Below are positions 12,187 to 54,418 of a DNA stretch of 64,000 nucleotides, one piece after another. Source of the stretch: Thermoanaerobaculia bacterium (GTDB taxonomy: Bacteria > Acidobacteriota > Thermoanaerobaculia > Multivoradales > Multivoraceae); NCBI GenBank assembly GCA_963666565.1, contig OY762911.1, forward strand, positions 1,472,001 to 1,536,000, in the 5' to 3' direction. The notes beneath the pieces are model-generated. The model was not told the origin of the DNA. It was given only the letters and a program-made list of their open reading frames with translations, and did not search any database. Every line of letters begins with the position of its first letter. Within the stretch, counting starts at the first letter, position 1. Made by a program: the position numbers and the translations under genes.

Positions 12187-12270
12187 CGCGGACCTAACGC
12201 TGGCGGAAGGCAGGCATCCGCTCGAATCGGAACGAGGCGATCGGGTCGTTCACGAAGTCCTCCAGGCGGC

Positions 12271-13350
12271 TCACGAGGGAGTCGTCGCGTCGCCGTCCGG
12301 CTTGCGCGCGTGGATGAGGAAGGAGGGCGTGAAGATGCCCGCCACGCCGCCCTCGACGAGGGAGTCGGCGGCCACGTTCAGGATGCGGGCGGCCTCGCCG
12401 GTGCCGGCGGGCGCGATGCGGAGCAGCTCGAGCAGACGGGTCGCCCCGGCCGTGAACCGGCGGCCCGCGGGAATCCGCCCGAGCGACGCGAGCGAAAGGT
12501 CGCGTCCCTGGAGCGACCGGTACCAGGGAGTGTCCGGATCGCACTCGAGGGAGTAGTCCTTCGCGGCCAGGATCTCGAAGCCGGCAGCCCTGGCCGCGTC
12601 GAGCTGCTGCGAAGTCGTGAGCAGGTTGGGCGTCGCGTTGGCGACTTCAAGCCGGTCGCGGATGTCGCGGTGGGCGGGATCGCCCGCGTCGTACCTCGCG
12701 GTGAGGCACCAGTCATTCAAGGCCAGCTCGCCGCCCGGTCTGAGCAGACGGAAGAACTCCTTGAAGCAGAGGTCCGTTCGGGGCGCGTGACAGACGGCGT
12801 CGAAGGAGTACGCCGCATCGAAGCAGCCGTCCTCGAGAGGCACGTCCAGGAAGTTCGCGAGCAGGAAGTCGCACGTCTCTTCGAGCCCGGCCCGGCGCAC
12901 CGCCCTGCGGCCTCTCTCGATCTGGAGCGCATTGAGGTTCAGGCCCGTGATGCTGGCGCCGGTGGCCTTCGCGATCGCGATCATCGGCCCGCCGACGCCG
13001 CATCCGAGATCGGCGGCCTTCATTCCCGGCTTGAGATCCAGGAGTTCGGCGACGCCGAGTTCGTGGCGGCGGACCGAGTCCCGGAGGCTCTCCCCGGATC
13101 GCCGAGGAGAGAAGTGGAACGACTGCCCCCAGCCGTACTCGTAGAAGCGGGTGACGACGTCGTAGTAGCGACTCACCATGCCGGGCTGACCGCGCAGGGC
13201 GCGGTCTTCTTCCTCCGCGCCGACGAGTGCCTTCAGCTCGAGGTAATCGTCGAGCGCCTCTCTCAGGGAGCCGCCGCTGTTGGCGGCCACGTGCGGACGA
13301 CCCGGTGTCGTCTCCACGCCGTCAACGTCGATGTGCGCTGGCTCTGCCAT
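12271..13350 (-). CDS. Sterol C24-methyltransferase (SMT/ERG6-like)
   Basis: SMT signature YYDVVTRFYEYGWGQSFHF; SAM motif DLGCGVGGP; YSFDAVCHAP; LRPGG; C-terminal GIFTP...ARKP. Confidence 0.9.
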   Translation of the reverse strand: MAEPAHIDVDGVETTPGRPHVAANSGGSLREALDDYLELKALVGAEEEDRALRGQPGMVSRYYDVVTRFYEYGWGQSFHFSPRRSGESLRDSVRRHELGVAELLDLKPGMKAADLGCGVGGPMIAIAKATGASITGLNLNALQIERGRRAVRRAGLEETCDFLLANFLDVPLEDGCFDAAYSFDAVCHAPRTDLCFKEFFRLLRPGGELALNDWCLTARYDAGDPAHRDIRDRLEVANATPNLLTTSQQLDAARAAGFEILAAKDYSLECDPDTPWYRSLQGRDLSLASLGRIPAGRRFTAGATRLLELLRIAPAGTGEAARILNVAADSLVEGGVAGIFTPSFLIHARKPDGDATTPS

Positions 13351-24917: not shown

Positions 24918-24997
24918 CAGGCGTGCATTCTCCCAGAACGTCAAGGGAGCTTCACGGAATCCCGCGGAAGCGGTTTCAATGCTAGGATTTGCGGTCT

Positions 24998-25966
24998 ATG
25001 CCCGCTCGTACCGTTGGCGCCGGCACCGTCTCGTTCGGCCTGGTCTCGATTCCCGTCCGCCTGTACTCCACCTCGGAGACCTCGGGCGCGGTCCGCTTCA
25101 ATATGCTCGACCCGACCGACAACACGCGGGTCAAGCAGCAGTTGATCAACCCGCGCACCGGCGCCGAGGTGAAGCGCAAGGAGACCATCAAGGGCTACGA
25201 GTTCGGCAAGGGCCAGTACGTCACCTTCAGCGACGAGGAGATCAAGGGCCTCCAGGAGAAGGCGTCGCCCGCCATCGAGATCACCGAGTTCGTGCCGCTC
25301 GAGGAAGTCGAGCCGATCTACTTCGAGAAGTCGTACTACCTGGGTCCCGAGAAGGGCGGCGAACGCGCCTACCGGCTGCTCAGCGAGGCGATGCGGAAGA
25401 CCGGCCGTTCGGCTCTGGCCAAGCACGCGGCGCGCGGCAAACAGTACCTCGTCATGCTCCGCCCCTTCGCGTCCGGCCTGCTGATGCAGCAACTGAAGTA
25501 CGAGGACGAGCTGAAGTCGTTCGACGAGGTGCCGCTCGGCGAGGAGACGGAGCTCAAGCCGGGCGAACTGGAGCTTGCCGTGCAGTTGATCGAGCAGATC
25601 GCGTCGGACGAGTTCAAGCCCGGCGAGTACACCGACGAGGTGCGCAAGCGGCTGTGGGACGCGATCCAGAGCAAGATCGACGGCCGCGAACTGGCCGAGG
25701 ACGAGACGGAGGCGCCTCAGGCACAGATCATCGACCTGATGGAGGCGTTGAAGGCGAGCCTGTCGAAGAACGGCGAAGCCGACGCCGGCGAGTCGGCCGC
25801 CGGCGGCGCCAGACCGAAGTCCGGCGCCCGCAAGGCCGGGGCCGCCAAGCCCAATTCCGGAACCCGCAAGCCGGCCAGGAAGGCGACGGCGCCGCGCAAG
25901 GCGACGAAGAAGAAGCCGGTTCGGCGAGCCGCGAGCACGACGGCGAAGCGGGCCGTGGCCGGTTGA
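24998..25966 (+). CDS. ku: NHEJ Ku protein
   Basis: GTVSFGLVSIPVRLY, IKGYEF, YFEKSYYLGP, IIDLMEALKASL, Lys-rich tail; divergent from ligD. Confidence 0.95.
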   Translation: MPARTVGAGTVSFGLVSIPVRLYSTSETSGAVRFNMLDPTDNTRVKQQLINPRTGAEVKRKETIKGYEFGKGQYVTFSDEEIKGLQEKASPAIEITEFVPLEEVEPIYFEKSYYLGPEKGGERAYRLLSEAMRKTGRSALAKHAARGKQYLVMLRPFASGLLMQQLKYEDELKSFDEVPLGEETELKPGELELAVQLIEQIASDEFKPGEYTDEVRKRLWDAIQSKIDGRELAEDETEAPQAQIIDLMEALKASLSKNGEADAGESAAGGARPKSGARKAGAAKPNSGTRKPARKATAPRKATKKKPVRRAASTTAKRAVAG

Positions 25967-37422: not shown

Positions 37423-38472
37423 ATGACCCTCGACTCGACGAATGGCGGCGCCTCGTCGGCCGCGGTGACCGACCTCCTCGGCCGGCCGTTGCGCGACCTG
37501 CGCATCTCCGTCATCGACCGTTGCAACTTCCGCTGCACGTTCTGCATGCCGGCCGACCGGGAGTACAGGTTCCTGCCGAGGCAGCAGTTGATGACGTTCG
37601 AGGAGATCGAGCGGCTGGTGCGGCTGTTCGTTCAACTCGGCGTGCGCAAGCTGCGGCTGACCGGCGGCGAGCCCCTCCTGCGGCGGGACATCGAGGATCT
37701 GGTCCGGCGTCTGGCCGCCGTTCCCGGAGTCGAGGACCTCGCCCTGACCACGAACGGCGCCCTGCTGGCGAAGAAAGCCCGCGCGCTTGCCGAGGCCGGC
37801 CTCGACCGGGTGACCGTCAGCGTCGAGTCGCTGCACGACGACGTCTTCGGCCGCGTGACCGGCCTCGGCCACGGCGTCGGCCAGGTGCTGGAGGGCATCG
37901 ACGCCGCGGCGGAAGCCGGCCTCGGCCCGATCAAGATCAACACGGTCGTCATGAAGGGAACGAACGAGGACGAGGTCGCCGACATCGCCGGCTACTTCAA
38001 GGAACGCGGCCACATCGTCCGCTTCATCGAGTTCATGGACGTCGGCACGGTGAACGACTGGAGCCTCGAGCAGGTCGTGACCGCCTCCGGGATCGCCGAC
38101 CGCATCGCCGAGCGCTGGGCCTTCGAGCCGGTCGACCGCGCCCAGCCCAGCGACGTCGCCGAGCGCTTCCGCTACCTCGACGACGGCGTCGAGTTCGGCG
38201 TCATCCCTTCCATCAGCCGCCCCTTCTGCGGGGACTGCGCCAGGGCCCGCCTCTCCTCCGACGGCCGCCTCTACACCTGCCTCTTCGCCGACACCGGCCC
38301 CTCGCTGCGCGACCGCCTCCGCGCCGGCGCCACGGACGACGACCTGCTCGCCTTCCTCGCCGCCCACTGGCGCCAGCGCGAAGACCGCTACTCCGAAGTC
38401 CGCGCCGAACGCCTCCGCGCCGGCCTGCAGCCGGCCGCGGAACGCGTCGAGATGTTCCGCATCGGCGGCTGA
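37423..38472 (+). CDS. moaA: GTP 3',8-cyclase (molybdenum cofactor biosynthesis)
   Basis: LRISVIDRCNFRCTFC, LTGGEPLLR, FCGDCARAR...YTCLF, C-terminal IGG. Confidence 0.95.
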   Translation: MTLDSTNGGASSAAVTDLLGRPLRDLRISVIDRCNFRCTFCMPADREYRFLPRQQLMTFEEIERLVRLFVQLGVRKLRLTGGEPLLRRDIEDLVRRLAAVPGVEDLALTTNGALLAKKARALAEAGLDRVTVSVESLHDDVFGRVTGLGHGVGQVLEGIDAAAEAGLGPIKINTVVMKGTNEDEVADIAGYFKERGHIVRFIEFMDVGTVNDWSLEQVVTASGIADRIAERWAFEPVDRAQPSDVAERFRYLDDGVEFGVIPSISRPFCGDCARARLSSDGRLYTCLFADTGPSLRDRLRAGATDDDLLAFLAAHWRQREDRYSEVRAERLRAGLQPAAERVEMFRIGG

Positions 38473-38517
38473 GACGCCCCGCGGCGCGGCCGCCCGGGGT
38501 GTGGCGACGTCGTCCGT

Positions 38518-38705
38518 GCACCAGCCCGCGGCGGGGCCGGGGGGAGGGGCGCCAGGGGCCGCTCGCCCTCTCGGAGAGGATGGGGAGGGTGGGCTCGCTG
38601 TTGTCGGCTGCGCTCCGGTTCGACGTCGGTTGCCGGAACGGTGTAGGCAGTCGCTGGCCTCCGACCCCCTGGCGCCCCTCCCCCCGGCCCGCAGCGGGCT
38701 GGACG
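38518..38705 (-). repeat. 188-nt long-hairpin repeat element, copy B
   Basis: Reverse-complement match to 14758-14945, for example shared GGAGAGGATGGGGAG and GGCTCGCTGTTGTCGGCTGC. Confidence 0.88.
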
Positions 38706-38710
38706 CCGTT

Positions 38711-38750
38711 GGGTGCGCGGGTCTTCTGACCCGCCGCCGCCGAAGGCGGC
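38711..38750 (+). repeat. REP-like hairpin plus GCCGCC-GAA-GGCGGC hairpin
   Basis: GGGTGCGCGGGTCTTCTGACCCGC; same position relative to the long element as at copy A. Confidence 0.88.
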
Positions 38751-38887
38751 GAACAGACGCCGCCGGCCGAAGAGACGGCGACCTCCCGGAATGTCAGGAC
38801 GGTGTGATGGCCGCTGGGGAGCAGCCCTGCCTGTGTGACCGTGCGCTGACCGGTCGGTGATTTCGCCGGAAAGGGCTCGTTCACGCG

Positions 38888-38917
38888 TTGACCGTCGGTG
38901 GACGCGGCCGGTACGCT
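38888..38917 (+). promoter_or_regulatory. Sigma70-like promoter of a probably leaderless mRNA
   Basis: TTGACC-N18-TACGCT, 7 nt upstream of the ATG at 38925. Confidence 0.55.
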
Positions 38918-38924
38918 GTCGGCG

Positions 38925-39125
38925 ATGACGACGGTCGAGCAGGCTGCGGAACGCGATCAGCGGCTTTCGGGACGCGACGAACCCGCTACTCGCGGCGACC
39001 TCTCCCTTTTGGCCGCCGAGATTCGCGCCGAGATCGCGGCCCTGGAATCTCGCCTCCTGTGGCGTCTTCTCGGCGGCGGTGGCGCCCTGCTGCTCCTTTC
39101 CCGTCTCGCCGACTTCCTTACCTGA
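38925..39125 (+). CDS. Small coiled-coil protein with C-terminal membrane anchor (DUF1640-like)
   Basis: ATRGDL...EIRAEIAALESRLLWRLL plus hydrophobic tail; own promoter. Confidence 0.65.
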   Translation: MTTVEQAAERDQRLSGRDEPATRGDLSLLAAEIRAEIAALESRLLWRLLGGGGALLLLSRLADFLT

Positions 39126-39363
39126 CGTCGGCGTTCGCCACGACCTTCAACTCCAGACCGCTCTCCTGGAGAACGCGGTCCAGTATCCCCTCCTCGCGGC
39201 AGCCCTCGAAGAAGATCGCCAGGGCCTCATGCAGCATGGCCATGGCTTCCTCGACCGTGGAGCCCTGGCTCGCTACATGAAGCCCCGGACACGAGGCTAT
39301 CCAGGCGTCCCGCTCGCGGTGGACTTCTGCAGGAACTTCGGTACCGGGGACTGTGCGGATCAC
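39118..39363 (-). CDS. HicB-family antitoxin (orphan)
   Basis: WIASCPGLHVASQGSTVEEAMAMLHEALAIFFE; GGAGG before GTG at 39363. Confidence 0.8.
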   Translation of the reverse strand: MIRTVPGTEVPAEVHRERDAWIASCPGLHVASQGSTVEEAMAMLHEALAIFFEGCREEGILDRVLQESGLELKVVANADVR

Positions 39364-39440
39364 TTGAACCTCCAAAGGCTGGAGTGCAACGTAGCACGGC
39401 CAGCCGTGAGGTCCGGCGACCTCATTCCAATGCCCGACGA

Positions 39441-39628
39441 CGTCCAACCTGAAGCGGGTCCGGGGAAGGGTCCCAGCGGGCTGGAGGCCAGCGACTGCCC
39501 TTGTCCCCTCATCGACCAACTTCGTCTCGGAGCGCAGCCGACCGAAGCGAGGGCCAAGTCTCCTCATCCACCTGGAAGGCGCGAGCGTCCGTCTGGGACC
39601 CTCCCCCGGACCCGCTTCAGGCGGGTGC
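39441..39628 (+). repeat. 188-nt long-hairpin repeat element, copy C
   Basis: Ends CGTCCA...GGGTGC; arms CCTGAAGCGGGTCCGGGGAAGGGTCCCAG / CTGGGACCCTCCCCCGGACCCGCTTCAGG; core CGGAGCGCAGCCGAC. Confidence 0.85.
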
Positions 39629-39723
39629 TACTGCCGTCGCATCCGACCGTGAACGCTCCGCTTACGACGCGGTTCCGGTACAGTGACGCGCATGTGCACG
39701 GTCGCGAAACGGGAGCCGCGGCG

Positions 39724-40767
39724 GTGAGCACCCGGCCCCTGCTGGCGGCGGCCGAGGGTGAGCGGGACCGCAAGGCGGAGCACATCCGGCTGGCGCTTGA
39801 CCGGCGGATGCAGGTGGAGCGCAGCTACTTCGACGACTACCGCTTCGAGCACCGGGCACTGCCCGAGATCGACTTCGAGGACGTGCGGATCGGCGCCGAG
39901 TTTCTGGGCCGCGCGCTCCGCGCGCCGCTGCTCATCTCGTGCATGACCGGCGGCACCGGGGTTGCGGAGCGGATCAACCGGCGCCTCGCCGAGGCGGCGG
40001 AGGCGGAGCGGGTCGTGCTGGGGATCGGTTCGCAGCGCAAGGCGATCGACGATCCGGAGACGGCGGCGACGTTCCGCGTCCGGGAATTCGCGCCCAGCGT
40101 GCCGATCCTGGCCAACCTGGGCGCGGTGCAACTGAACTACGGCTACGGCATCGACGAGTGCCGCCGCGCGGTCGACATGGTCGAGGCCGACGCCCTGGCG
40201 CTGCACCTGAACGCGCTGCAGGAGGCGCTCCAGCCGGAAGGGCAACTCAACTTCCGCGGACTGCTGCCGAAGATCGCCCGCGTGGTCGAGGCGCTGGACG
40301 TGCCGGTCGTGGTCAAGGAGATCGGTTGCGGCATCTCGGCGGCGGTCGGCCGCGAGCTCGCCAACGTCGGCATCCGCATCCTGGACACGGCCGGCGTCGG
40401 CGGCACGAGCTGGGCTCGTATCGAGGCGGCCCGAGCCGACGAAACGGCCCTCGGCGAGCGCTTCGCCGACTGGGGGCTGCCGACGCCGGAGTCGATCCGC
40501 CAGTTGGCGGCGGTTCCCGGCGTGCAGGTGATCGGCAGCGGCGGCATCCGCTCCGGCGTCGATGCGGCGAAGGCCCTGGCGCTCGGCGCCGACATCGCCG
40601 GCATGGCGTTCCCGTTCCTCGAGGCGGCGAACGCCTCGACGGCCGCGGTGGTCGACCGGATCGCCCGCACCGCCTTCGAGCTGCGCACCTGCATGTTCTG
40701 CACCGGCGCCGCCGACCTCGCGGCGCTTCGCCGCGTGCCGCTCGCGCGGGAGGCTCGCAGTGGCTGA
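39724..40767 (+). CDS. fni: Type 2 isopentenyl-diphosphate delta-isomerase
   Basis: RKAEHI, SCMTGG, GSQR, HLNALQE, VKEIGCG, GGTSW, SGGIRSG. Confidence 0.95.
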   Translation: MSTRPLLAAAEGERDRKAEHIRLALDRRMQVERSYFDDYRFEHRALPEIDFEDVRIGAEFLGRALRAPLLISCMTGGTGVAERINRRLAEAAEAERVVLGIGSQRKAIDDPETAATFRVREFAPSVPILANLGAVQLNYGYGIDECRRAVDMVEADALALHLNALQEALQPEGQLNFRGLLPKIARVVEALDVPVVVKEIGCGISAAVGRELANVGIRILDTAGVGGTSWARIEAARADETALGERFADWGLPTPESIRQLAAVPGVQVIGSGGIRSGVDAAKALALGADIAGMAFPFLEAANASTAAVVDRIARTAFELRTCMFCTGAADLAALRRVPLAREARSG

Positions 40768-40841
40768 GCGGCTCTCCAGGCTGCCCGGAGGTTCACGTCT
40801 CGAGAGTCGGCGTGCCAGCTCGCCGGCGCGGGAGGCCGTCC

Positions 40842-42119
40842 ATGTCTGATCGGTCGGTTGCCGGTCCTGAACTGGCCCCCGAGCTCGAGGCGGCGGCGGC
40901 CGAGATCGCCGGCTCGGAGCGCGGTTTCCACCGGCCGCCGCCGGGGCTCGACGCGGCGGGGAAGGCCGCGGTCCGCCGTCGTGCCCTGGACCTTGCGAGC
41001 GGCAGCGGACCGCTCACGACCATCGGCAGCTACGCCCTGGACGGCGAACGCGCGTCCACCCAGAACTGCGAGAACTTCATCGGCGCTGCCCAGGTGCCGA
41101 TGGGCGTCGCCGGGCCGGTTCGCGTCCGCGGGAGTGAGATCGACGGCACCGTCTGTGTGCCGATGGCGACCACAGAGGGGGCGCTGCTTGCCAGCGTGAA
41201 CCGCGGCTGCCGCGCGATCACGGCGGCGGGCGGCGCGACCGTCTTCGTCGAGGACGTGGGCATGACCCGGGCGCCGGTCTTTCGCACCACGGGAATTGAG
41301 GACACGAGGCGGCTGCTCAAGTGGCTGGAAGAGAACGAGGAGACGATCCGCGCCAAGGCTCACGAAACGAGTCGCTTCCTGGAACTTCGGGACATTCGAC
41401 CATCGGTGGTCGGAAGCACCGTGTTCCTTCGGTTCCGCTTCGCCACCGGCGACGCGATGGGCATGAACATGGTCACGATCGCCTGCGACCGCGTTGTGTC
41501 CGAGTTGATCGAGCCGGAGACCGGCGCCCAGTGCGTGGCGCTGTCGGGGAACTACTGCGTCGACAAGAAACCCTCCGCGGTCAACTACCAGCTCGGTCGC
41601 GGCAAGCGGATTCACGCAGAGGTGGTGCTGGACGAGACGACCGTGCGCAAGGTCCTCAAGTCGGAAGCGAACGCACTCCAGGACGTGGCCTACCGCAAGA
41701 ACCTGCTGGGCTCCGTCGCGGCCGGCGCGCTCGCCTTCAACGCCCAGTTCGCGAACGTGCTGGCGGCGGTCTTCGTCGCCTGCGGCCAGGATCTCGCCCA
41801 CGTCGTCGAGGGCGCGATGGGCGTCGCCTCGTTCGAGGCGCGCGACGACGGCTCGGTTTACGCGTCCGTCTACATGCCGGATTGTCCGCTGGCCGCGGTC
41901 GGCGGCGGCACGGGTCTGGACACCCAGCGCGAGGCGCTCGAAGTCATGGGCGTGCGGCCCGACGCGGAGCGGCCCGGCGCGGCGGTGCGCCGGCTGGCCG
42001 AGATCGTCGGCGCCGTCGTCCTGGCAGGCGAACTCTCCCTGACCGCGGCGTTCACGTCGCGCGACCTGGCGCGGGCCCACGAGCGGCTGGGCCGCTCCAG
42101 CGCCGCGAGCGCGGGTTGA
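40842..42119 (+). CDS. hmgA: HMG-CoA reductase, class I (archaeal/eukaryotic type)
   Basis: CENFIG, PMATTEGAL, GDAMGMNM, cis-loop GNYCVDKKP, GQDLAH, GELSL...AHERL. Confidence 0.95.
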   Translation: MSDRSVAGPELAPELEAAAAEIAGSERGFHRPPPGLDAAGKAAVRRRALDLASGSGPLTTIGSYALDGERASTQNCENFIGAAQVPMGVAGPVRVRGSEIDGTVCVPMATTEGALLASVNRGCRAITAAGGATVFVEDVGMTRAPVFRTTGIEDTRRLLKWLEENEETIRAKAHETSRFLELRDIRPSVVGSTVFLRFRFATGDAMGMNMVTIACDRVVSELIEPETGAQCVALSGNYCVDKKPSAVNYQLGRGKRIHAEVVLDETTVRKVLKSEANALQDVAYRKNLLGSVAAGALAFNAQFANVLAAVFVACGQDLAHVVEGAMGVASFEARDDGSVYASVYMPDCPLAAVGGGTGLDTQREALEVMGVRPDAERPGAAVRRLAEIVGAVVLAGELSLTAAFTSRDLARAHERLGRSSAASAG

Positions 42120-42125
42120 ACCACC

Positions 42126-42689
42126 ATGTATGAAACCAGGGCGCTCGACGAGACGACCTGGCCGGAGTTCGCGCACCTCGTCGAGGCTAACAACGGTGTC
42201 TGGGGCGGGTGCTGGTGCCTTTGGTATCACGGGAAGGAAGTCAGCGAGAACAGAACGCTCGCTCAGAAGCGCAAGGCGAAGGAACGCCTCGTTCGTGAAG
42301 GCCGGGCGCATGCCTCGCTTGTCTTCGAGGGCGAGGACTGCGTGGGCTGGTGTCAGTTTGGATCGCCGGAAGAGCTTCCGCGGATCCACAATCAGCGCGC
42401 CTATCGGAAGACCGATCCGGTCTTGCCCGACTGGCGGATCACCTGCTTCTTCTCCGGCAAGGGACATCGCGGCAACGGAGTCGCTTCAGTCGCGTTGAAA
42501 GGCGCCATCGAGCAAATCAGGACGCTAGGCGGCGGGCGCGTTGAGGCGTACCCGGAGAACACAGAAGGCAGAAAAGCCTCGCCGGCATTCCTCTTCAACG
42601 GTTCGCTGTCCATGTTCGAACGGAGCGGTTTCAAGCGATCGCAGCAGATCGGGAAGCACAAGTGGGTCGTGACGCGAACGATCAGGTAA
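42126..42689 (+). CDS. GNAT-family acetyltransferase-like protein
   Basis: WGGCWC, CVGWCQF, ITCFF...HRGNGVA, VEAYP, MFERSGF. Confidence 0.85.
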   Translation: MYETRALDETTWPEFAHLVEANNGVWGGCWCLWYHGKEVSENRTLAQKRKAKERLVREGRAHASLVFEGEDCVGWCQFGSPEELPRIHNQRAYRKTDPVLPDWRITCFFSGKGHRGNGVASVALKGAIEQIRTLGGGRVEAYPENTEGRKASPAFLFNGSLSMFERSGFKRSQQIGKHKWVVTRTIR

Positions 42690-42730
42690 CGCCGGGGAGC
42701 TCAGTACAGAAGAGGATTGGCGCCGACCTC

Positions 42731-43873
42731 ATGTCGAAGTTCAATCCAGGCGGAAGAGGAGAGGCGGAGGCGTCGGTGGTGCGGTTGAGCGTGCCCGGCA
42801 AGGTGATCCTGATGGGGGAGCACGCGGCGGTGTATGGCCGGCCGGCTGTGGTGGCGGCCGTGGACCTGCGCCTTGCCGTCGAGGCTCGTAGCGATCCGGC
42901 AGGTGTCGGCCGGATTCGCCTGGACCTGCCTGACCTCGGTCTTCAGGAGGAGCACTCGTGGCCGGCGCTTGAGGACTTCACGAACCGCGCCCGCCGTCGA
43001 TGGAACAGGTTCGAGGCGGGCGACGTGCCGTTCAGGCCGGCGGACGACCGGAGTGCCCTGGTCCGGATCGCGGTCGGTGAAGCGGCGGCGTCTTTGCCAC
43101 CGGCGGTTTCGGAACGGCTGCGACGACGGGGGTTGGAGTTGCGGTTGCGGTCCCAGCTTCCGGTCGGGGCCGGCCTTGGTAGCTCGGCTGCGGCTGCTGT
43201 CGGAGTGGTTGCTGGCGTCCGAGCACTGGCGGGGAGACGGGTTCGCTCACCCGACGAACTGGCTGCGATCGAGGCGGCGGCGCTCGGGGTCGAGCGGCGG
43301 CAGCACGGTTTCCCGTCGGGGATCGACAGTGGAACGGTGCTGCGTGGCGGCGTTCTGCTCGTTCGCCGTGAAGGGGACGAGTTGCGATTCGAGGACCTGC
43401 CGAGGCCGGAGTGGCTTCCGGGCGAGGTCGCGATCCTGGACAGCGGGACGCCTGACCAGACCACGGGCACGGTGGTCACGGCGGTGCGACGGCGCTATGA
43501 GGAAGAGCCAGAGCGGACGATCGCCGTGTTCGACCGCATCGGGGCGGCGGTCGAGTCCTTTCGCGCGGCGCTTGGGGACGGCGGGCCGCGGGACGCGGCG
43601 GCAGCCATCGCCGACGGTCATCGCGCCCTGGTCGAACTCGGCGTGGTGCCGCCGCCGGTCGCTCGCCGGATTGCGTCGGTGGAAGCTGCCGGGGGCGCGG
43701 CGAAGATCTCCGGGGCCGGGGCTCTTGAAGGCGAGTCGGCCGGCGCCCTGGTCTGCATGCTCGGCGGCCGGTCAGTCGAGACGATCGATGGAATCCCGGA
43801 CCTCGAGCCGGTGAACGCGGCGATCGGTGCCGACGGCCTGAGGTTCGAGAGTCCCATCGCCGATCGACTGTAG
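42731..43873 (+). CDS. mvk: Mevalonate kinase
   Basis: PGKVILMGEHAAVYG, LPVGAGLGSSAA, HGFPSGID, AKISGAG. Confidence 0.9.
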   Translation: MSKFNPGGRGEAEASVVRLSVPGKVILMGEHAAVYGRPAVVAAVDLRLAVEARSDPAGVGRIRLDLPDLGLQEEHSWPALEDFTNRARRRWNRFEAGDVPFRPADDRSALVRIAVGEAAASLPPAVSERLRRRGLELRLRSQLPVGAGLGSSAAAAVGVVAGVRALAGRRVRSPDELAAIEAAALGVERRQHGFPSGIDSGTVLRGGVLLVRREGDELRFEDLPRPEWLPGEVAILDSGTPDQTTGTVVTAVRRRYEEEPERTIAVFDRIGAAVESFRAALGDGGPRDAAAAIADGHRALVELGVVPPPVARRIASVEAAGGAAKISGAGALEGESAGALVCMLGGRSVETIDGIPDLEPVNAAIGADGLRFESPIADRL

Positions 43874-43885
43874 GCTTCGGGAGAG

Positions 43886-44938
43886 ATGAACTCCGCGTTG
43901 GAACCGGCCCATGAGCCTGGGCCCGTGACTGCTGAGGCGCCTTCGAACATCGCTTTCATCAAGTACTGGGGCGCCCGGGATCTCAAGGGTCCGGTTCCCT
44001 TCAACCGCTCGCTGTCGATGACCCTGGATGCCTGCCGGTCGATCTGCTCGGCGTCTCCCCTGGCCAACGGACGGGACGACGAGATCGTCTGGCTGGAAGA
44101 GCCGTCTGCCGGTCGAACCGAGGCCGCCGCGGAAGCGCCGCCGGCCTTCGTCGAGCGGACGCGGCGGCACCTGGACCGGCTTCGCGAGTGGTCGCGGCAG
44201 ACGACGGCGCCTTACGCGGGCGGGTTCCGGATCGCGACCGGCAACACTTTCCCGGCGGCGGCCGGGATCGCCTCATCCGCTTCGGGCTTCACCGCCCTGA
44301 CCCTCGCCGTGACGGCCGCCATGGGCTTCGACCTGCCGCCACCGACTCTGTCCGCCCTGTCGCGGAGCAGCGGCTCGGGCTCGGCCGCCCGCTCGGCCTA
44401 CGGCGGCTACGTGGAGTGGCCCGGCGGGAACGGCAACAGCGCGGTCCAGGTCCTCGGCGAGGACGCCTGGCGGCTCTGCGACGTGGTCGCCGTGGTCGAG
44501 ACCGGCGCCAAGAAGGTCTCGTCGCGGGACGGGCACCGGCTTGCCACGAGCAGTCCGTACTTCGCGCCGCGCCTGGCCGCGCTCGAAGGGCGGCTGGACC
44601 AGGTTCGGGCCGCCCTCGAACGGCGCGACTTCGAGGCCCTCGGCCAGGCGGTCGAGGAGGAAGGGATCGATCTCCACCTGATTGCGATGTCGTCCCGGCC
44701 TCCGGTGTACTACTGGTCGCCGGGGACGATCGAGGTGCTGGCGGCGGTCCGCGACCTGCGGGCGGACGGCGTCGCCGCCTACGCGACGATGGATGCCGGC
44801 GCCAACGCCCACGTCATCTGCCAGCCCGGCGACGAACAGCGCGTGGCGGAACGGCTCGGCGCCCTCGGCGCCGTCGAGCGCGTGCTGCGGGACCGCACCG
44901 GCGGGCCGCCCGTCTGGCGGAGCGGAGCCGAGCTTTGA
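43886..44938 (+). CDS. mvaD: (Di)phosphomevalonate decarboxylase; probably mevalonate-5-phosphate decarboxylase
   Basis: APSNIAFIKYWG, SLSMTL, GIASSASG, SGSAARS, TMDAGAN. Confidence 0.9.
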   Translation: MNSALEPAHEPGPVTAEAPSNIAFIKYWGARDLKGPVPFNRSLSMTLDACRSICSASPLANGRDDEIVWLEEPSAGRTEAAAEAPPAFVERTRRHLDRLREWSRQTTAPYAGGFRIATGNTFPAAAGIASSASGFTALTLAVTAAMGFDLPPPTLSALSRSSGSGSAARSAYGGYVEWPGGNGNSAVQVLGEDAWRLCDVVAVVETGAKKVSSRDGHRLATSSPYFAPRLAALEGRLDQVRAALERRDFEALGQAVEEEGIDLHLIAMSSRPPVYYWSPGTIEVLAAVRDLRADGVAAYATMDAGANAHVICQPGDEQRVAERLGALGAVERVLRDRTGGPPVWRSGAEL

Positions 44939-45900
44939 GTGCGGCCGCCGCCGCGATGTCTGGCGGCGCGTCCTCGCGCCAGCGCCCTGGTCCGAGCGCC
45001 CGTCCTCGGGCGGTCGGGCGTCGCGCCGCCGGCGACCGGCCAGCCGTCACGCTGCTCAAGCTCGGCGGCAGCCTGATCACCGACAAGACGAAGCCGCGCG
45101 CGCTCGCAAAGGAACACCTGGGGCGGCTGGCGGCCGAGATCGCGGCGGGATGGTCGGGGAACGGCCTCGTCATCGGTCACGGCAGCGGTTCCTTCGGCCA
45201 CCCGGAGGCGCAGGCGGCCGGCCTCGCCGGGGGCGCGGGAGGCCGCCGGCTCGACCCGGAAGCCGCCGCGATGGGCATCGCGCGCACGCAATCCGCTGCC
45301 TTCGAGCTCCACCGGCTGGTCGTCGGAAGCCTGGTCGAGGCGGGCGTGCCCGCCTACTCGCAGCCGCCGTCGAGCTTCCTGGTCGCCGACGACGGCGAAC
45401 CCCGGGGCGCTCCGCCCGAGCCCATGGCGGCCGCGCTGCGGCGGGGCCTCGTGCCCGTCACGATGGGCGACGTCGTGATCGACAGCGAGCGCGGCGCAGC
45501 GATCGTCTCCACCGAGACGGTGTTCGGGTTTCTGGTCGGGGCGCTGGCCGGACTGGGGATCGACGTGAAGCGGGTCGTGTGGCTGGGCGTGACCGCCGGC
45601 GTGCTGGACCGGGAGGGGCGTCCGATGCCGCGCATTGACGCCTCGAACATCGAGGCCGCGACGGCGGCGGCCGGCGGTTCCGCCGCGGTCGACGTCACCG
45701 GCGGCATGGAACACCGGCTTGCCGCCGCCTGGCGGCTGGCCCGGCGCGGCGTCGAGTCGCTGATCGCCGACGGCAGGCGGCCGGGCCTGCTCCAGTCGGT
45801 GCTCCGCCATCCGGGCGGTGAGGCCGAGGTCGCCGGTACACTCGTGAGCGCCGTCGGCCAGGCGCCTGCGCCGCAGGGCGCAGCGAAGCAGGTTCTGTGA
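44935..45900 (+). CDS. ipk: Isopentenyl phosphate kinase
   Basis: LKLGGSLITDK, HGSGSFGH, IVSTE, DVTGGM; TTGA overlap with the decarboxylase gene. Confidence 0.9.
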   Translation: MSAAAAAMSGGASSRQRPGPSARPRAVGRRAAGDRPAVTLLKLGGSLITDKTKPRALAKEHLGRLAAEIAAGWSGNGLVIGHGSGSFGHPEAQAAGLAGGAGGRRLDPEAAAMGIARTQSAAFELHRLVVGSLVEAGVPAYSQPPSSFLVADDGEPRGAPPEPMAAALRRGLVPVTMGDVVIDSERGAAIVSTETVFGFLVGALAGLGIDVKRVVWLGVTAGVLDREGRPMPRIDASNIEAATAAAGGSAAVDVTGGMEHRLAAAWRLARRGVESLIADGRRPGLLQSVLRHPGGEAEVAGTLVSAVGQAPAPQGAAKQVL

Positions 45901-46025
45901 CGCACGGTGCCGGTTGGGTGGGGGCTGGCGCCAAGCACGGACTCTGCGACGGGTTTGGCGGCTCTGGCCGACCTCCTGAGCGGCGACATCGAGACCTCCA
46001 TCCGGATCTGTCCACCGAGAGAACC

Positions 46026-46706
46026 ATGCGCGCGAGCAGCACCGTCGAGGACTACCTCAAGTGCATCTTCCTGGCTGAGCACGAGGCCAGCCTGGAGAGC
46101 GCCCAGCTCGTGCCGATGGGCCGGATCGCGGCGCGCCTCAAGGTGGCGCCGGCCTCGGTCACGGCGATGATGAAGACTCTCTCCGAGTCCGGCCTGATTG
46201 CCTATGAGCCCTACAGCGGAGTGCGTCTCCTTCCTGCCGGCCGGAAGCTGGCGACGCACGTGCTGCGGCGCCACCGCCTGGTGGAACTCTTCCTGGTGAA
46301 CGTGATGGGCTTCGACTGGAGCGAGGTCCATGCCGAAGCCGAACTGCTCGAGCATTCCGTCTCCGAACGGATGATCGAGCGGATGGACGAGATGCTCGGC
46401 CATCCGTCGGTCGATCCCCACGGCGACCCGATCCCCAGCGCCGACGGCTACATCGAGATCGTGGACCACCCGAGTCTGCTGAGGTGCCCGCTGAACTGCA
46501 CGGTCGAGGTGGTGCGCGTCACCGACCAGGACGCCGACTTCCTGCGCTTCGCCGAACGCGAGGGTCTGGCGCCAGGGAAGTGGATCGAGGTTGCGGCTCG
46601 CGACGAGACCGCGGGCAGCGTCGCCGTAGTCTCCGGCAGCCGGCAGTTCAGCCTCGGCTTCCCGGCCGCGTCCAAGGTACTCGTGCGGGAGGCGAACCAG
46701 GCCTGA
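46026..46706 (+). CDS. DtxR/MntR-family metal-dependent regulator with FeoA domain
   Basis: EDYLKCI, RRHRLVELFL, VHAEAELLEH, DPHGDPIP. Confidence 0.92.
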   Translation: MRASSTVEDYLKCIFLAEHEASLESAQLVPMGRIAARLKVAPASVTAMMKTLSESGLIAYEPYSGVRLLPAGRKLATHVLRRHRLVELFLVNVMGFDWSEVHAEAELLEHSVSERMIERMDEMLGHPSVDPHGDPIPSADGYIEIVDHPSLLRCPLNCTVEVVRVTDQDADFLRFAEREGLAPGKWIEVAARDETAGSVAVVSGSRQFSLGFPAASKVLVREANQA

Positions 46707-46731
46707 TCGCCGGCCGCAGACCTCGCTCCTT

Positions 46732-47244
46732 TCAGACGCAGTCGTTACTCTTCGCGACGACGAAGAGCGGGTCGCCGCCGTCGACGGTCTGGCCGACCTC
46801 CACGAGGAGCTTCTCCAGGCGGCCGTCGATCTCGGACTGGATCTCGTTCTCCATCTTCATCGCCTCGAGCACGACGACGCCCTGGCCGGAGGCCACCTCG
46901 TCGCCCTCGGCCGCGAGCACGGCCGTGACCCGGCCGGGCATGTAGGCGGTCGCCTCGAACACGTCGGCGGCGCCCTGCCGGGCCGCCTCTCCGAGGATCC
47001 GCGAGCGGGGGTCGATCACCGTGAGTTCGGCGCCGTCCACGGCGTAGACGCCCTTGCCGAGCGAGCGGACGTTCCGGGTCGCCTGGCGTCCGTCGACGAT
47101 CATGCTCAGTACGTCGGGCCGTCCCAGGGTCGCGGCGTCCACCCGGTACTCGCGGCCGTCGACCGCCACGGTCCACTGGCCGTCCGCCTCGTCGCGGACC
47201 TCGACGCGAACTTCGCCGGCGCCGCGGGCGACGATCAGTTCCAC
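46732..47244 (-). CDS. Biotin carboxyl carrier protein
   Basis: YMPGRV...VLEAMKMENEI. Confidence 0.9.
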   Translation of the reverse strand: MELIVARGAGEVRVEVRDEADGQWTVAVDGREYRVDAATLGRPDVLSMIVDGRQATRNVRSLGKGVYAVDGAELTVIDPRSRILGEAARQGAADVFEATAYMPGRVTAVLAAEGDEVASGQGVVVLEAMKMENEIQSEIDGRLEKLLVEVGQTVDGGDPLFVVAKSNDCV

Positions 47245-48779
47245 GCCGTGCCCCTCCGGGCGTCGCGGCGCGCGGCGAGCAGCCAGTTCGACCGCGGGGC
47301 GCCGTCGCCTGCCGCCGCGCCGGCGCCGTTCGTCTCGATCCGCGTCACGTGGGCGAGAACGGCGGCGAGGACGGGCAGATCGGCCTCCAGGGCGCCGTCC
47401 TCCGGCGCCGCCGGCCGCAACTCGCCGGTCTCGAGCTTGCGGTCGAGCATCGAGATGTCCATGTTGCCGGCTACGAAGTCCTCGTCCTCGAGCAGCAGTT
47501 CGAACAGGGGCAGGTTCGTGCGGATGCCCTCGACCCGGGTCTCGGCGAGCGCTCGCTTCAGCCGAGCCAGCGCGTCGGCGCGGTCCCGCCCCCAGACGAT
47601 CAGCTTGGCCAGCATCGGGTCGTAGTGGATCGTGACCTCGGCGCCCTCGTAGACGCCGCAGTCGTTGCGCACGCCCGGCCCCTCCGGCAGTTGCAGCAGT
47701 TCGATCCGGCCGGGCGAGGGCGCAAAGTTGCGGAACGGATCCTCCGCGTACAGCCGGACCTCGACGGCGTGCCCCCTGGGCTCGATGCCGTTCTCGAGGG
47801 CCTCGGGCAGCGGCTCGCCGGCCGCGATGTCGAGCTGGGCGGCGACGATGTCGATGCCGGTCACCAGCTCGGTGACCGGATGCTCCACCTGGATCCTCGT
47901 GTTCATCTCCAGGAAGTAGAAGTCCCCCCGCGGATCGAGCAGGAACTCGACCGTGCCGGCGCCGGCGTAGTTCACCGCGGCGGCGGCGCGGACCGCCGCT
48001 TCGCCCATGCGGCGGCGGAGATCCGCGTCGACGACGGGCGACGGCGCCTCCTCGACGACCTTCTGGTGGCGTCGTTGCAGCGAGCACTCCCGTTCGCCGA
48101 GGGAGACGATCCGTCCGTGCCGGTCGCCGAGGATCTGGATCTCGACGTGGCGGGGCCGCTCGACGAAGCGCTCGATGTAGACCGAGGCGTCGTCGAAGCT
48201 GGCGCCGGCCTCCGAGGTCGCGCCGCGGAACGCCGCGTCGAGCTCGCTCTCCTCGCGCACCAGCCGCATCCCCTTGCCGCCGCCGCCGGCGGACGCCTTC
48301 AGCATCACCGGGTAGCCGATCTCGGCCGCCGCCGCGCGGGCAGCCTCGGCGGAGGCCAGCGGGTCCGTGCCGCCCGGCACGATGGGCACGCCGGCCGCGG
48401 TCATCAGGCGGCGGCTCTCGATCTTCGAGCCCATCGCCGCGATCGCCGCCGACGGCGGCCCGATGAAGGCGATGCCGCGCTCCTCGCAGAGACGGGCGAA
48501 ACCGGCGTTCTCCGACAGGAAGCCGTAGCCGGGATGGATCGCGTCGGCGCCGACGAAGGCGGCGAGGTCGACGATCCTCCCGGCCTGGAGGTAGCTCTCG
48601 ATCGAGGGCGCGGGGCCGATGCAGTGCGCCTCGTCCGCCATCCGCGTGGCGAGACCGGCGCGGTCCGCCTCCGAGTAGACGGCGACCGAGACGATGCCGC
48701 GCTCGCGGAGCGCCCGGATCACCCGCACCGCGATCTCGCCGCGGTTCGCGACGAGTACCTTCCGTAGGCCGTTCTTCAT
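47235..48779 (-). CDS. accC: Acyl-CoA carboxylase biotin carboxylase subunit
   Basis: VANRGEIA, HPGYGFLSEN, GGGGKGMR, ECSLQRRHQK, EMNTRIQVEH. Confidence 0.93.
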   Translation of the reverse strand: MKNGLRKVLVANRGEIAVRVIRALRERGIVSVAVYSEADRAGLATRMADEAHCIGPAPSIESYLQAGRIVDLAAFVGADAIHPGYGFLSENAGFARLCEERGIAFIGPPSAAIAAMGSKIESRRLMTAAGVPIVPGGTDPLASAEAARAAAAEIGYPVMLKASAGGGGKGMRLVREESELDAAFRGATSEAGASFDDASVYIERFVERPRHVEIQILGDRHGRIVSLGERECSLQRRHQKVVEEAPSPVVDADLRRRMGEAAVRAAAAVNYAGAGTVEFLLDPRGDFYFLEMNTRIQVEHPVTELVTGIDIVAAQLDIAAGEPLPEALENGIEPRGHAVEVRLYAEDPFRNFAPSPGRIELLQLPEGPGVRNDCGVYEGAEVTIHYDPMLAKLIVWGRDRADALARLKRALAETRVEGIRTNLPLFELLLEDEDFVAGNMDISMLDRKLETGELRPAAPEDGALEADLPVLAAVLAHVTRIETNGAGAAAGDGAPRSNWLLAARRDARRGTAWN

Positions 48780-52468: not shown

Positions 52469-53356
52469 GTGATCGCTGCCGTCCTGAGGTCGCTCCGGCC
52501 GGCGCAGTGGAGCAAGAACGTGTTCGTTCTGGCGCCGGCCGCGTTCGCCGGCAGCCTGCTGGACGGCGGCGCGCTGGCCGCCTCGGCGACCGCCTTCGCG
52601 GCGTTCTGCGCGGCGGCCAGCTCCGTCTACCTGTTCAACGATCTGCGCGACCGCGAGCTGGACCGCCGCCATCCGACCAAGAGGCTGCGGCCGGTGGCGT
52701 CGGGCGCCCTGGGCGCGGCGACGGCCGCGGCAGTCAGCGCGGGGCTGGCGGCCGCCGCCGTCGGCGCCGCCTGGACCCTCGACGGCCGCGCGGTCCAGCT
52801 CGTCGCCGCCTACCTCCTGGTGAACCTCCTCTACTGCCTGTGGTTGAAGCGGGTCGTGATCGTCGACGTGATGGTGCTGTCGAGCGGCTACGTGATCCGC
52901 GTGCTGGCTGGCGGCGCCGCGGTCGGCGTGGCGGTTTCCGCCTGGCTGGTGCTCTGCACCGTCTTCCTGGCGCTCTTCCTGGGGTTCTCCAAGCGGCGGC
53001 ACGAACTGGTGCTTCTGTCGGGCGAGGCCCGCGAGCAGCGGGCGGTGCTCAGCCAGTACAGCCGGACGTTCCTCGACCAGATGATGAACGTGGTGACCGC
53101 CTCGACGCTGCTGTCCTACGCCCTGTACGCCACGGCCGACGAGACGGTCGCACGCTTCGGCGCCTACAGCCTGGTCTGGACGGTTCCCTTCGTGCTCTTC
53201 GGCATCTTCCGCTACCTCTACCTCATCCACCAGGCCGAGAATCCGAAGCAGCGGAATCCGACCGAGCTACTCCTGTTCGATGCGCCGTTCCTCGTCAACA
53301 TGGGGCTCTACAGCCTGACGGTCTTCCTGATCGTCTACGGTCGCGGCCCGTCCTGA
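52469..53356 (+). CDS. UbiA-family prenyltransferase (decaprenyl-phosphate phosphoribosyltransferase-like)
   Basis: LRPAQWSKN, YLFNDLRDRELDRRHPTKRLRPVASG, KRRHEL, FGIFRYL. Confidence 0.9.
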   Translation: MIAAVLRSLRPAQWSKNVFVLAPAAFAGSLLDGGALAASATAFAAFCAAASSVYLFNDLRDRELDRRHPTKRLRPVASGALGAATAAAVSAGLAAAAVGAAWTLDGRAVQLVAAYLLVNLLYCLWLKRVVIVDVMVLSSGYVIRVLAGGAAVGVAVSAWLVLCTVFLALFLGFSKRRHELVLLSGEAREQRAVLSQYSRTFLDQMMNVVTASTLLSYALYATADETVARFGAYSLVWTVPFVLFGIFRYLYLIHQAENPKQRNPTELLLFDAPFLVNMGLYSLTVFLIVYGRGPS

Positions 53357-54418
53357 GCGCCCTCCCGCGTTCGACCGGCGCAGCAGCCACAGCACCCAGG
53401 GCATGGCCAGCAGGCCCACGGCGACCGCGAACCACAGGGTGGCGGCCCGGACGATGACGGTCGCGGCCATCGCCGCGTCGAGGCCGACGCCCTGGCGCTC
53501 CAGCAGCAGGACGAGGGACCCCTCCGCGGCGAGGAGGCCGCCCGGCAGCATCGAGGCGGCGCCGGCGATGCTGGAGGCCGCGTAGTCGAACACGGAGGCC
53601 AGGACGGGCACGGACGGCGCGTAGTGCCGGACGACGAGCGCGCAGCCGACGCCCTCCGCCGCCCACGCGGCGGTGGAGAGGGCGAGGCCCGCGAGCAGCG
53701 TCCGGGTCTCGAGCAGGCGCGCGAAGGCCTGGTGGATGTCGATCAGCACCGCCGCTCGCCCCTTGGCGAGCCGGGTCTTCGCCAGCAGGGGCAGCAGGCG
53801 CCGGACCAGCGGCCCGTACGCCGCCGCCACCGCGGCCGCCGCCGCGACGAGGACGACCGGCGCCATGAACGAGCCTTGGCCGGTGAAGACGAGGGCCGAC
53901 GACGCGATCAGCAGCAGGACGGCGAGCACGTCGAGCAGCCGTTCCGTCACGACGACCGCGACGACCGGGCGCGCCCGTCCGCCGCCGAACTCGCGCGCCA
54001 TCCACGCCTTGGCGAGTTCGCCCGCCTTGCCGGGGGTGACCGCGAGCAGGAAGCCGGTCAGGAAGATCGCGAGGCTGCGGGTCCAGGGCAGGCGGACGTC
54101 GAGGCGCCGCAGGTAGAGCTGCCAGCGCACGAAGCGCAGCCAGTAGTTGACGGCGGACAGCAGCAGCACGACGGCCAGCGTCGCGGGACTGAAGCCGCGG
54201 ATCAGCTCGCGGATCCGCCCGAAGTCGCCCAGGAAGCCGAACGCGGCGAACGTCACCGTGCCCAGCAGGAGCAGAACCAGCAGGCCGCGTCCGATGCCCC
54301 GGAACGGCCGGTTCAAGTCGGCCGCTCCTGGCGAGGTGGGGGCTGGGGCCGAACCTGGCGCCTGCGACGGGTCCGGCGGCGTTTGGCGGTGGTCGGTGAG
54401 CGGCACGGGCGGCAGCAT
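53267..54418 (-). CDS. Lysylphosphatidylglycerol-synthase TM / flippase-like protein (UPF0104)
   Basis: LRFVRW, TPGKAGELAK, ERLLD, LPGGLLAAEG, RAATLWF; 3' end overlaps the UbiA gene. Confidence 0.85.
   Translation of the reverse strand: MLPPVPLTDHRQTPPDPSQAPGSAPAPTSPGAADLNRPFRGIGRGLLVLLLLGTVTFAAFGFLGDFGRIRELIRGFSPATLAVVLLLSAVNYWLRFVRWQLYLRRLDVRLPWTRSLAIFLTGFLLAVTPGKAGELAKAWMAREFGGGRARPVVAVVVTERLLDVLAVLLLIASSALVFTGQGSFMAPVVLVAAAAAVAAAYGPLVRRLLPLLAKTRLAKGRAAVLIDIHQAFARLLETRTLLAGLALSTAAWAAEGVGCALVVRHYAPSVPVLASVFDYAASSIAGAASMLPGGLLAAEGSLVLLLERQGVGLDAAMAATVIVRAATLWFAVAVGLLAMPWVLWLLRRSNAGGRSGRAATVDDQEDRQAVEPHVDEERRIEQE

Follow-up and report, generated by a model that had tools for sequence, protein, structure and literature searches.

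A probable phosphomevalonate decarboxylase/isopentenyl phosphate kinase operon in an Acidobacteriota bacterium that also carries a DXS-less methylerythritol phosphate gene set

Isopentenyl diphosphate (IPP) can be formed from mevalonate 5-phosphate (MVA-5-P) by way of isopentenyl phosphate, a branch of the mevalonate pathway that relies on a decarboxylase of the monophosphate (MPD, also termed phosphomevalonate decarboxylase, PMD) and on isopentenyl phosphate kinase (IPK). In the passages of Aoki 2022 and Zhu 2024 (PMC11052028) available to us, this MPD/IPK route is assigned to haloarchaea and some Chloroflexi/Chloroflexota, and Zhu 2024 widens its range within Archaea. The phosphomevalonate decarboxylase of Haloferax volcanii was described by VanNice 2014, as cited in later papers. 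Among the genomes available in 2010, Dellas 2013 (PMC3857490) recognizes clear IPKs of bacterial origin in a single class, the Chloroflexi. Here we describe a gene cluster that likely encodes a working MPD/IPK route in a member of another phylum, a Thermoanaerobaculia bacterium of soil and marine type belonging to the Acidobacteriota. The cluster and the regulator gene that follows it lie at 39724-46706 of a window of 64,000 bases (G000:C1:1472001-1536000, the whole stretch of DNA that was analysed) in a genome made up of a single contig of 4,786,144 bases and rated 97% complete. Our literature search found no report of the pathway in Acidobacteriota, supplementary tables with possible Acidobacteriota listings being outside its scope. 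The literature that was found gives Chloroflexi as the sole bacterial phylum with the MPD/IPK route, in line with the claim of a preliminary description of this locus that the host extends the known range.

Seven plus-strand open reading frames (ORFs), separated by gaps of 6 to ~125 bases, lie in this interval, and the G+C content of the window is ~70%. Gene families were assigned from the ORF list together with Pfam and NCBIfam profile matches. The preliminary description had listed fni, a class I HMG-CoA reductase (HMGR) gene, mvk, a decarboxylase gene and ipk in one run, and profile matches confirmed the families of all five, each on the plus strand. The leading gene, fni (39724..40767), encodes a type 2 (FMN-dependent) isopentenyl-diphosphate isomerase of 347 aa (TIGR02151, 385.9 bits against a cut-off of 281.3; also PF01070); its start is uncertain, with a GTG at 39694 as the alternative. 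HMGR (40842..42119, 425 aa; PF00368, 390.5 bits) is of the NADPH-type class I, scoring 428.7 bits with the class I model TIGR00533 (just below its cut-off of 441.8) and 35.7 with the class II model TIGR00532. For the product of mvk (42731..43873, 380 aa), the mevalonate kinase model TIGR00549 was the top family (137.8 bits, E 4.8e-40, below the cut-off of 163), and models of phosphomevalonate kinase (PMK) reached E values of only ~2e-4 to 5e-4. It is the sole mevalonate kinase (MVK)-like GHMP kinase of the genome. The next gene (43886..44938) encodes a 350-aa decarboxylase of the mevalonate diphosphate decarboxylase (MDD) family with PF22700 and PF18376 domains. It is followed by ipk (44956..45900, 314 aa; NF040647, 136 bits against a cut-off of 120), for which an alternative TTG start at 44935 would overlap the decarboxylase stop. 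The nearest solved structures to the kinase are archaeal IPKs (3ll9, 95.9 bits; 8u0k, 95.3 bits), with the GSFGH and DVTGGM stretches aligned. When the window proteins were searched against the genome with tblastn, MVK, the decarboxylase, IPK, HMGR and fni each proved to be single-copy.

The gene set contains no PMK, as the preliminary description had noted for the window, and the same is true of the complete single-contig genome. A PF00288 census detected six GHMP kinases, namely (i) MVK, (ii) the decarboxylase, (iii) IspE, (iv) homoserine kinase (ThrB), (v) galactokinase (GalK), and (vi) an HddA-like heptose kinase; all are assigned to functions other than that of PMK. For the animal-type PMK domain PF04275, the best match in the whole genome was 15 bits (E 0.07), and no MVK, decarboxylase or IPK paralogue turned up in the tblastn search.

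The decarboxylase bears alanine (Ala30) at the lysine position of the KYWGK motif and histidine (His217) at the position of a methionine in classical enzymes; the earlier reading of KYWGA is borne out by the alignment (K26-Y-W-G-A30). In a search of all solved structures, its top relative was 6n0x (196.1 bits), which we take to be the monophosphate decarboxylase from Anaerolinea thermophila (Thomas et al. 2019), followed by the variant 6n0z (191.9 bits); the top classical structure was 5v2l from Enterococcus (156.2 bits). The two motifs read KYWGN and QGH in 6n0x, KYWGK and QGM in 6n0z, KYWGK and DGM in 5v2l, and KYWGA and DGH in the query, so that the deposited variant 6n0z departs from 6n0x at exactly these two motif places. 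According to the relevant passage of Aoki 2022, a PMD structure from Anaerolinea thermophila exists, and mutagenesis by Thomas et al. switched the specificity of that enzyme. The excerpt of Zhu 2024 (PMC11052028) names lysine in diphosphomevalonate decarboxylase (DMD) and histidine in PMD as the distinguishing motif, and Table 4 of Dellas 2013 (PMC3857490), the part of that paper relevant here, gives Lys21 as an active-site residue of MDD and shows it replaced in MPDs. The catalytic core shared by GHMP enzymes (the GSGSAxRS loop and the Asp of the DAG motif) is present: a 130-row alignment shows no variation at S164, S166 or R169 and very little at D303, and all four align with 6n0x. A PMK elsewhere in the genome combined with a decarboxylase of diphosphate type, which the preliminary description had named as the finding that would speak for a salvage role of IPK, was looked for and not found.

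To place these residues among relatives, we considered 3225 decarboxylase homologues from a full HMMER search and read both positions in the best 150 cluster representatives, using a rough alignment. Lys/Met occurred in 45 representatives, Lys/His in 44 and non-Lys/His in ~46; non-Lys/Met was found in 0, and the rest were gapped. Loss of the lysine thus implies the histidine type, but the lysine by itself is not diagnostic of the classical type. Taken alone, KYWGA is a weak marker, with 44 of the 150 nearest representatives keeping the lysine together with the histidine. The decarboxylase types are told apart better by the His/Met position and by the neighbouring gene. In a census of 80 public loci with their flanks, neighbouring kinases were identified by NCBIfam models and tblastn and the two positions were taken from a profile alignment. 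All 15 loci with an IPK neighbour combined a non-Lys residue with His, and all 28 with a PMK-like neighbour combined Lys with Met. The 28 PMK-like neighbours comprised 14 above the TIGR01220 cut-off and 14 below it, TIGR01220 still being the top family of the latter. The nine loci with two MVK-like kinases were mixed (Lys/His 5, Lys/Met 3, Arg/His 1), as were the 28 without a kinase neighbour (non-Lys/His 22, mostly Chloroflexota; Lys/Met 3; non-Lys/Met 2; Lys/His 1).

In a quick maximum-likelihood tree, with branch supports from the Shimodaira-Hasegawa-like approximate likelihood ratio test (SH-aLRT), the query fell into a clade of 11 rows (SH-aLRT 99), the other ten being nine sequences titled Acidobacteriota and one from a metagenome-assembled genome (MAG) titled Gemmatimonadota. 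All 28 PMK-linked enzymes were found in a single clade of 34 rows (SH-aLRT 94), and the query clade lies outside it. With the two signature columns excluded, the neighbour label changed a single time on the tree. The label "archaeal-style" given to the operon in the preliminary description thus suits the proposed chemistry and not the ancestry: the decarboxylase belongs to a bacterial clade of its own, and the haloarchaeal MvaD model gives a score of only 123 against 475.

From its residues, its tree position and its IPK neighbour, we read the enzyme as a phosphomevalonate (MVA-5-P) decarboxylase. Conversion of MVA-5-P to isopentenyl phosphate and then to IPP is the best reading of the cluster because the lysine is lost, the histidine is present, 6n0x is the closest structure, the tree puts the query on the side of the IPK-linked enzymes, and PMK is absent. 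In the proposed pathway, an HMG-CoA synthase (HMGS) encoded elsewhere would supply HMG-CoA, which HMGR would reduce to mevalonate, and MVK would then form MVA-5-P. The MDD-family enzyme would phosphorylate MVA-5-P at C3 and decarboxylate it directly to isopentenyl phosphate. IPK would add the second phosphate to yield IPP, and the type 2 isomerase would convert IPP to dimethylallyl diphosphate. The HMGS, which the preliminary description had noted as absent from the window, has a candidate at C1:1357888-1359258 on the minus strand (367 aa; TIGR01835, 245.5 bits, below the cut-off of 360). The five top families of this protein are all HMGS, so that upstream HMGS and HMGR are both present in the genome. 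Gene content, the absence of PMK, the residues, the tree and the synteny were observed; what we infer is the substrate specificity, the flux and the share of IPP that passes through the MPD/IPK route.

Several points weigh against this reading. The enzyme assignments are predictions from sequence. The decarboxylase passes the diphosphomevalonate decarboxylase model TIGR01240 (202.3 bits against a cut-off of 171.35) and fails the haloarchaeal MvaD model NF040704 (123.2 bits against a cut-off of 475). As TIGR01240 is blind to the two specificities, automatic annotation will probably name the query a diphosphomevalonate decarboxylase. Its match to the MPD residue pattern is partial. For Roseiflexus, Table 4 of Dellas 2013 (PMC3857490; this table being the portion available) gives Arg83, Ala201 and Thr255, which are unmatched in the query; it has Pro36, Ser164 and Ser213 instead, with the numbering mapped by inference via 6n0x. 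In ungapped alignment, Pro36 stands where 6n0x has Arg, and Ser164/Ser166 stand in place of Ala/Ser. The query also keeps Ser213-Arg214 as in the Enterococcus MDD (SSRDG), where 6n0x reads GSTQG. Two Ser and one polar residue occupy these positions in the haloarchaeal row of the same table (PMC3857490) as well. The Chloroflexota enzyme is credited with dual activity in the passage at hand of Zhu 2024 (PMC11052028), so the specificity of the decarboxylase may not be strict. The census amounts to one evolutionary contrast, with one independent pair and a sign test p of 1; it consequently assigns the query to the IPK-linked branch of a single old split and is no proof that the residues set the specificity. 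As to PMK, the Gram-positive model TIGR01220 gave a best match of 17.3 bits in the whole genome, and the same search stayed below its cut-off in all 14 control genomes, among them Lactococcus, which presumably carries PMK. Having failed in 14 of 14 controls, this search lends no weight, and the absence of PMK rests on the GHMP census instead.

Also on this side of the balance is a second set of isoprenoid genes, with six of the seven methylerythritol phosphate (MEP) pathway genes and three enzymes that use 1-deoxy-D-xylulose 5-phosphate (DXP) present alongside the mevalonate cluster. Six MEP enzymes scored above their cut-offs: DXR (356.8 bits; C1:1559166-1560332), IspD (182.3 bits) and IspF (191.9 bits), both encoded by ispDF (C1:280288-281475), IspE (179.8 bits; C1:3282321-3284114, minus strand), IspG (359.4 bits), and IspH (246.7 bits). 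The model match of IspE covers only the first ~190 residues (about two thirds), and a Pro/Arg-rich insertion precedes the C-terminal GHMP motif; this enzyme may or may not be active. The missing member is DXS. Its best TIGR00204 match in the whole genome (49 bits) is the transketolase (TIGR00232, 829.7 bits), tblastn with DXS from the same order retrieved only the transketolase gene (47 bits), and the DXP_synthase_N domain had no match in the genome at E ≤ 0.01. ThiG and PdxJ consume DXP, and their genes are present (thiG, C1:936576-937310; pdxJ, C1:781148-781846); both were detected in all 7 genus genomes searched, this one included. The presence of these DXP users implies that DXP is made somehow and that a source other than DXS exists. 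MEP sets without DXS have been described before but lack an explanation: PMC10663253 counts them in 181 of about 4,400 species.

This DXS-less set would be the other source of IPP in the genome. With DXR and IspD to IspH present, the mevalonate cluster is not necessarily where most IPP comes from, and a claim of sole use cannot stand; the genome is not MEP-free, unlike the Chloroflexi class and archaea, for which the mevalonate route is stated to be the sole one to IPP. The suggestion that the host uses a haloarchaea-type pathway is accordingly upheld only in part. The missing PMK, the Ala/His pair and the IPK gene after the decarboxylase gene speak for it, and the coexisting MEP genes leave sole use unsupported. 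The search for MEP genes proposed at that stage likewise had a divided outcome, with DXR and IspD to IspH found and DXS not.

The operon is conserved well beyond this genome. The close homologues are from Thermoanaerobaculia bacterium (86% identity) and Candidatus Multivorans (80%). The order fni, HMGR, mvk, decarboxylase, ipk was kept in all 10 other loci of the decarboxylase clade, contig ends truncating two of them (L025 and L027). Synteny holds down to ~50% decarboxylase identity, with a range of 50-86% protein identity over the 10 loci. We then analyzed an order-level sample of 31 genomes, this genome included, 19 of which represent the genus. IPK was above cut-off in 28 of 31 genomes (19/19 in the genus), DXR in 24 of 31 (19/19), and DXS in only 2 of 31 (0/19). 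Five order-level genomes (G019, G020, G024, G025 and G028) possess IPK without DXR, showing that the mevalonate route can stand alone in the lineage. Genome G023 has DXR and neither IPK nor DXS.

In the phylum sample, IPK was above cut-off in 26 of 301 genomes, 11 of them in the host's order; 8 further partial IPK matches of ~60 bits were left uncounted. None of the 16 genomes from other orders of the host's class had IPK in this sample, and the remaining 15 IPK-positive genomes belong to four families of other classes. One Acidobacteriota MAG (L066) instead belongs to the classical PMK type and has HMGR fused to MVK. Two census loci carry titles from other phyla, with MAG binning taken as published: L024, titled Gemmatimonadota, contains a full Acidobacteriota-type operon, and L044, titled Gammaproteobacteria, has the decarboxylase and IPK genes adjacent, with Val plus His at the two positions. 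To judge from the names of its close homologues, the host itself is an Acidobacteriota and not a member of the Chloroflexi, in agreement with the preliminary description, which had taken a TonB receptor as a sign against Chloroflexi; a TonB-dependent receptor barrel is encoded at 18032-21988.

The coexistence of two gene sets allows that the MPD/IPK route is real but accessory or conditional, with most IPP derived from the MEP pathway and DXP from an unrecognised replacement for DXS. DXR and IspD to IspH above their cut-offs, the presence of DXR throughout the genus, ThiG and PdxJ in 7/7 genomes, a genome with DXR that lacks both IPK and DXS, and the 181 species with DXS-less sets in the part of PMC10663253 cited above are what such an arrangement would lead one to expect. 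However, with DXS and DXP_synthase_N absent from the genome, the entry capacity of the MEP pathway is in doubt. The mevalonate operon is moreover intact, single-copy and conserved over the genus and most of the order, and five order-level genomes have IPK but not DXR. We regard a merely accessory role as rather unlikely. A combined arrangement can be put forward tentatively, and we consider it doubtful, if somewhat less so. Here an order-level Acidobacteriota lineage would hold a PMK-less MPD/IPK operon next to a MEP pathway without DXS, for which some undiscovered enzyme would supply the DXP. Its decarboxylases would form an old bacterial PMD lineage of their own, in operons laid out differently from those of Chloroflexota.

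Two further explanations concern the cluster itself. It might be a classical route in disguise, in which an unrecognised kinase, possibly the IPK homologue, converts MVA-5-P to mevalonate 5-diphosphate for a diphosphate decarboxylase, IPK otherwise serving salvage. The decarboxylase passes TIGR01240 and keeps the classical Ser-Arg pair, IPK performs the same phosphate-to-diphosphate chemistry, and IPK is found beside a classical pathway in bacteria of the candidate phyla radiation (CPR) according to the portion of Hoshino and Gaucher 2018 available. Yet GHMP-type and animal-type PMK are both absent from the complete genome, the query lies outside the PMK-linked clade, and the exchanges of Lys to Ala and Met to His have no parallel among PMK-linked census decarboxylases, 0/28 of which lack the lysine; this makes a disguised classical route improbable. 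Least probable of all, and hardly credible, is that the cluster was recently transferred or is a decaying relic without present function. The patchy occurrence of IPK (26/301 phylum genomes and 0/16 in the other orders of the class) is compatible with horizontal transfer, but all six cluster ORFs from fni to ipk are open and single-copy, and their G+C content (0.68-0.75) is like that of the surroundings (0.68-0.77). In addition, gene order is conserved at 50-86% protein identity over 10 loci, and IPK is present in 19/19 genus genomes. A working MPD/IPK route thus remains the reading that we favour.

Two of the seven plus-strand ORFs have no place in the proposed pathway. Between HMGR and mvk lies a GNAT-like ORF (42126..42689, 187 aa; weak PF00583 match, E 6e-4, 20.5 bits against 20.7) with zero NCBIfam family matches. 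The preliminary description, correct for the five genes that it named, made no mention of it. A homologue occupies the same place in the closest locus (L021) and is absent from L022. Directly 3′ of ipk, a metal-dependent repressor of the MntR/DtxR family with a FeoA domain is encoded at 46026..46706 (PF02742, PF01325 and PF04023; NF047407, 189 bits against a cut-off of 350). A regulator start at the GTG at 45897 would remove the gap between the two genes. The regulator has the same position in L021 and L022 and is 5.5 kb off in L029, and whether it is part of the operon is uncertain. A promoter scan of 38400-47300 returned 0 sigma-70-like sites. Terminator-like sites in the same interval numbered 6, against 2.6 ± 1.8 in shuffled sequences, none of them convincingly at the end of a plus-strand cluster gene.

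Elsewhere in the window, some genes relate to isoprenoids. A UbiA-family gene resembling decaprenyl-phosphate phosphoribosyltransferase (52469-53356, plus strand; NF008977, 274 bits against 234), a user of polyprenyl phosphate, is located 7 kb from the mevalonate operon, beside an ORF with an LPG_synthase_TM domain (53267-54418, minus strand). At 11032-13350 on the minus strand, a Sterol_MT_C methyltransferase gene (PF08498, 68.8 bits) adjoins a gene for a Rieske/KshA_C oxygenase, the latter with a weak match to the sterol demethylase model SdmA (49.9 bits against 600). Sterols may be the substrates of these two enzymes. No squalene/oxidosqualene cyclase was found in this genome, and at least one (up to four) was above cut-off in 11 of 12 sampled genus genomes. 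The window also contains, at 22167-25966, a LigD gene (phosphoesterase, ligase and primase-polymerase domains) and a Ku gene, a pair for non-homologous end joining.

The MPD/IPK branch figures in arguments on the early evolution of isoprenoid and membrane-lipid synthesis, and a second bacterial phylum with a compact, conserved operon would provide new sequences for rooting the PMD/DMD family. The six genes would also constitute a cassette ready for pathway engineering. For annotation, the locus is a warning that TIGR01240-positive "diphosphomevalonate decarboxylases" beside IPK are probably monophosphate enzymes. The coexistence of the mevalonate genes with a DXS-less MEP set makes the lineage a good place to seek the missing source of DXP. 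If the lineage does maintain the two routes in the combined form outlined above, MPD/IPK would be a recurrent bacterial solution rather than an archaeal or Chloroflexi oddity, which bears on the question of which decarboxylase type came first. NCBI already names an "isopentenyl phosphate kinase [Acidobacteriota bacterium]" in related MAGs; the gene call is therefore not new, and it is the pathway-level reading in this phylum that we did not find in print.

Among known systems, the classical operon of Bacillota, Actinomycetota and others (mvk, mvaD and PMK) shares with the present cluster MVK, an MDD-family decarboxylase, fni and HMGR in one group. In classical loci, PMK stands beside a Lys-plus-Met decarboxylase (28/28), and many have a class II HMGR or an HMGR-MVK fusion, whereas the cluster described here is PMK-less, with IPK in the place of PMK, the Ala-plus-His pair and a class I HMGR. 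The clusters of CPR bacteria (Microgenomates), as presented in the section available of Hoshino and Gaucher 2018, are likewise bacterial, can include IPK and have decarboxylases with His. In our tree, CPR decarboxylases are near the Acidobacteriota clade with weak support (SH-aLRT 72), but in CPR census loci two MVK-like kinases adjoin the decarboxylase and the lysine is mostly kept (Lys in L033, L049 and L076; Arg in L034). The haloarchaeal system (MvaD of NF040704 plus IPK) has the same proposed chemistry, from MVA-5-P through isopentenyl phosphate to IPP; here the host is bacterial, and the score of 123.2 against the cut-off of 475 puts the query outside that family.

The closest counterpart is the Chloroflexota MPD plus IPK system (Roseiflexus castenholzii, Dellas 2013; 6n0x), which has in common with this locus MVK, a decarboxylase that lacks the lysine and bears the histidine, IPK, and the absence of PMK. 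It differs in phylum, the decarboxylase described here falls into a separate clade, and the Arg, Ala and Thr residues listed for Roseiflexus are absent from this enzyme. Here fni and a class I HMGR belong to the same tight operon, whereas most Chloroflexota decarboxylases of the census are without a pathway neighbour, IPK being close by in no more than 4 Chloroflexota loci. MEP genes coexist with the cluster in this genome, whereas the class Chloroflexi is without them according to the part of Dellas 2013 (PMC3857490) that treats it. Taken together, the cluster most likely represents a known pathway type in a new phylum, arranged as a distinctive compact operon.

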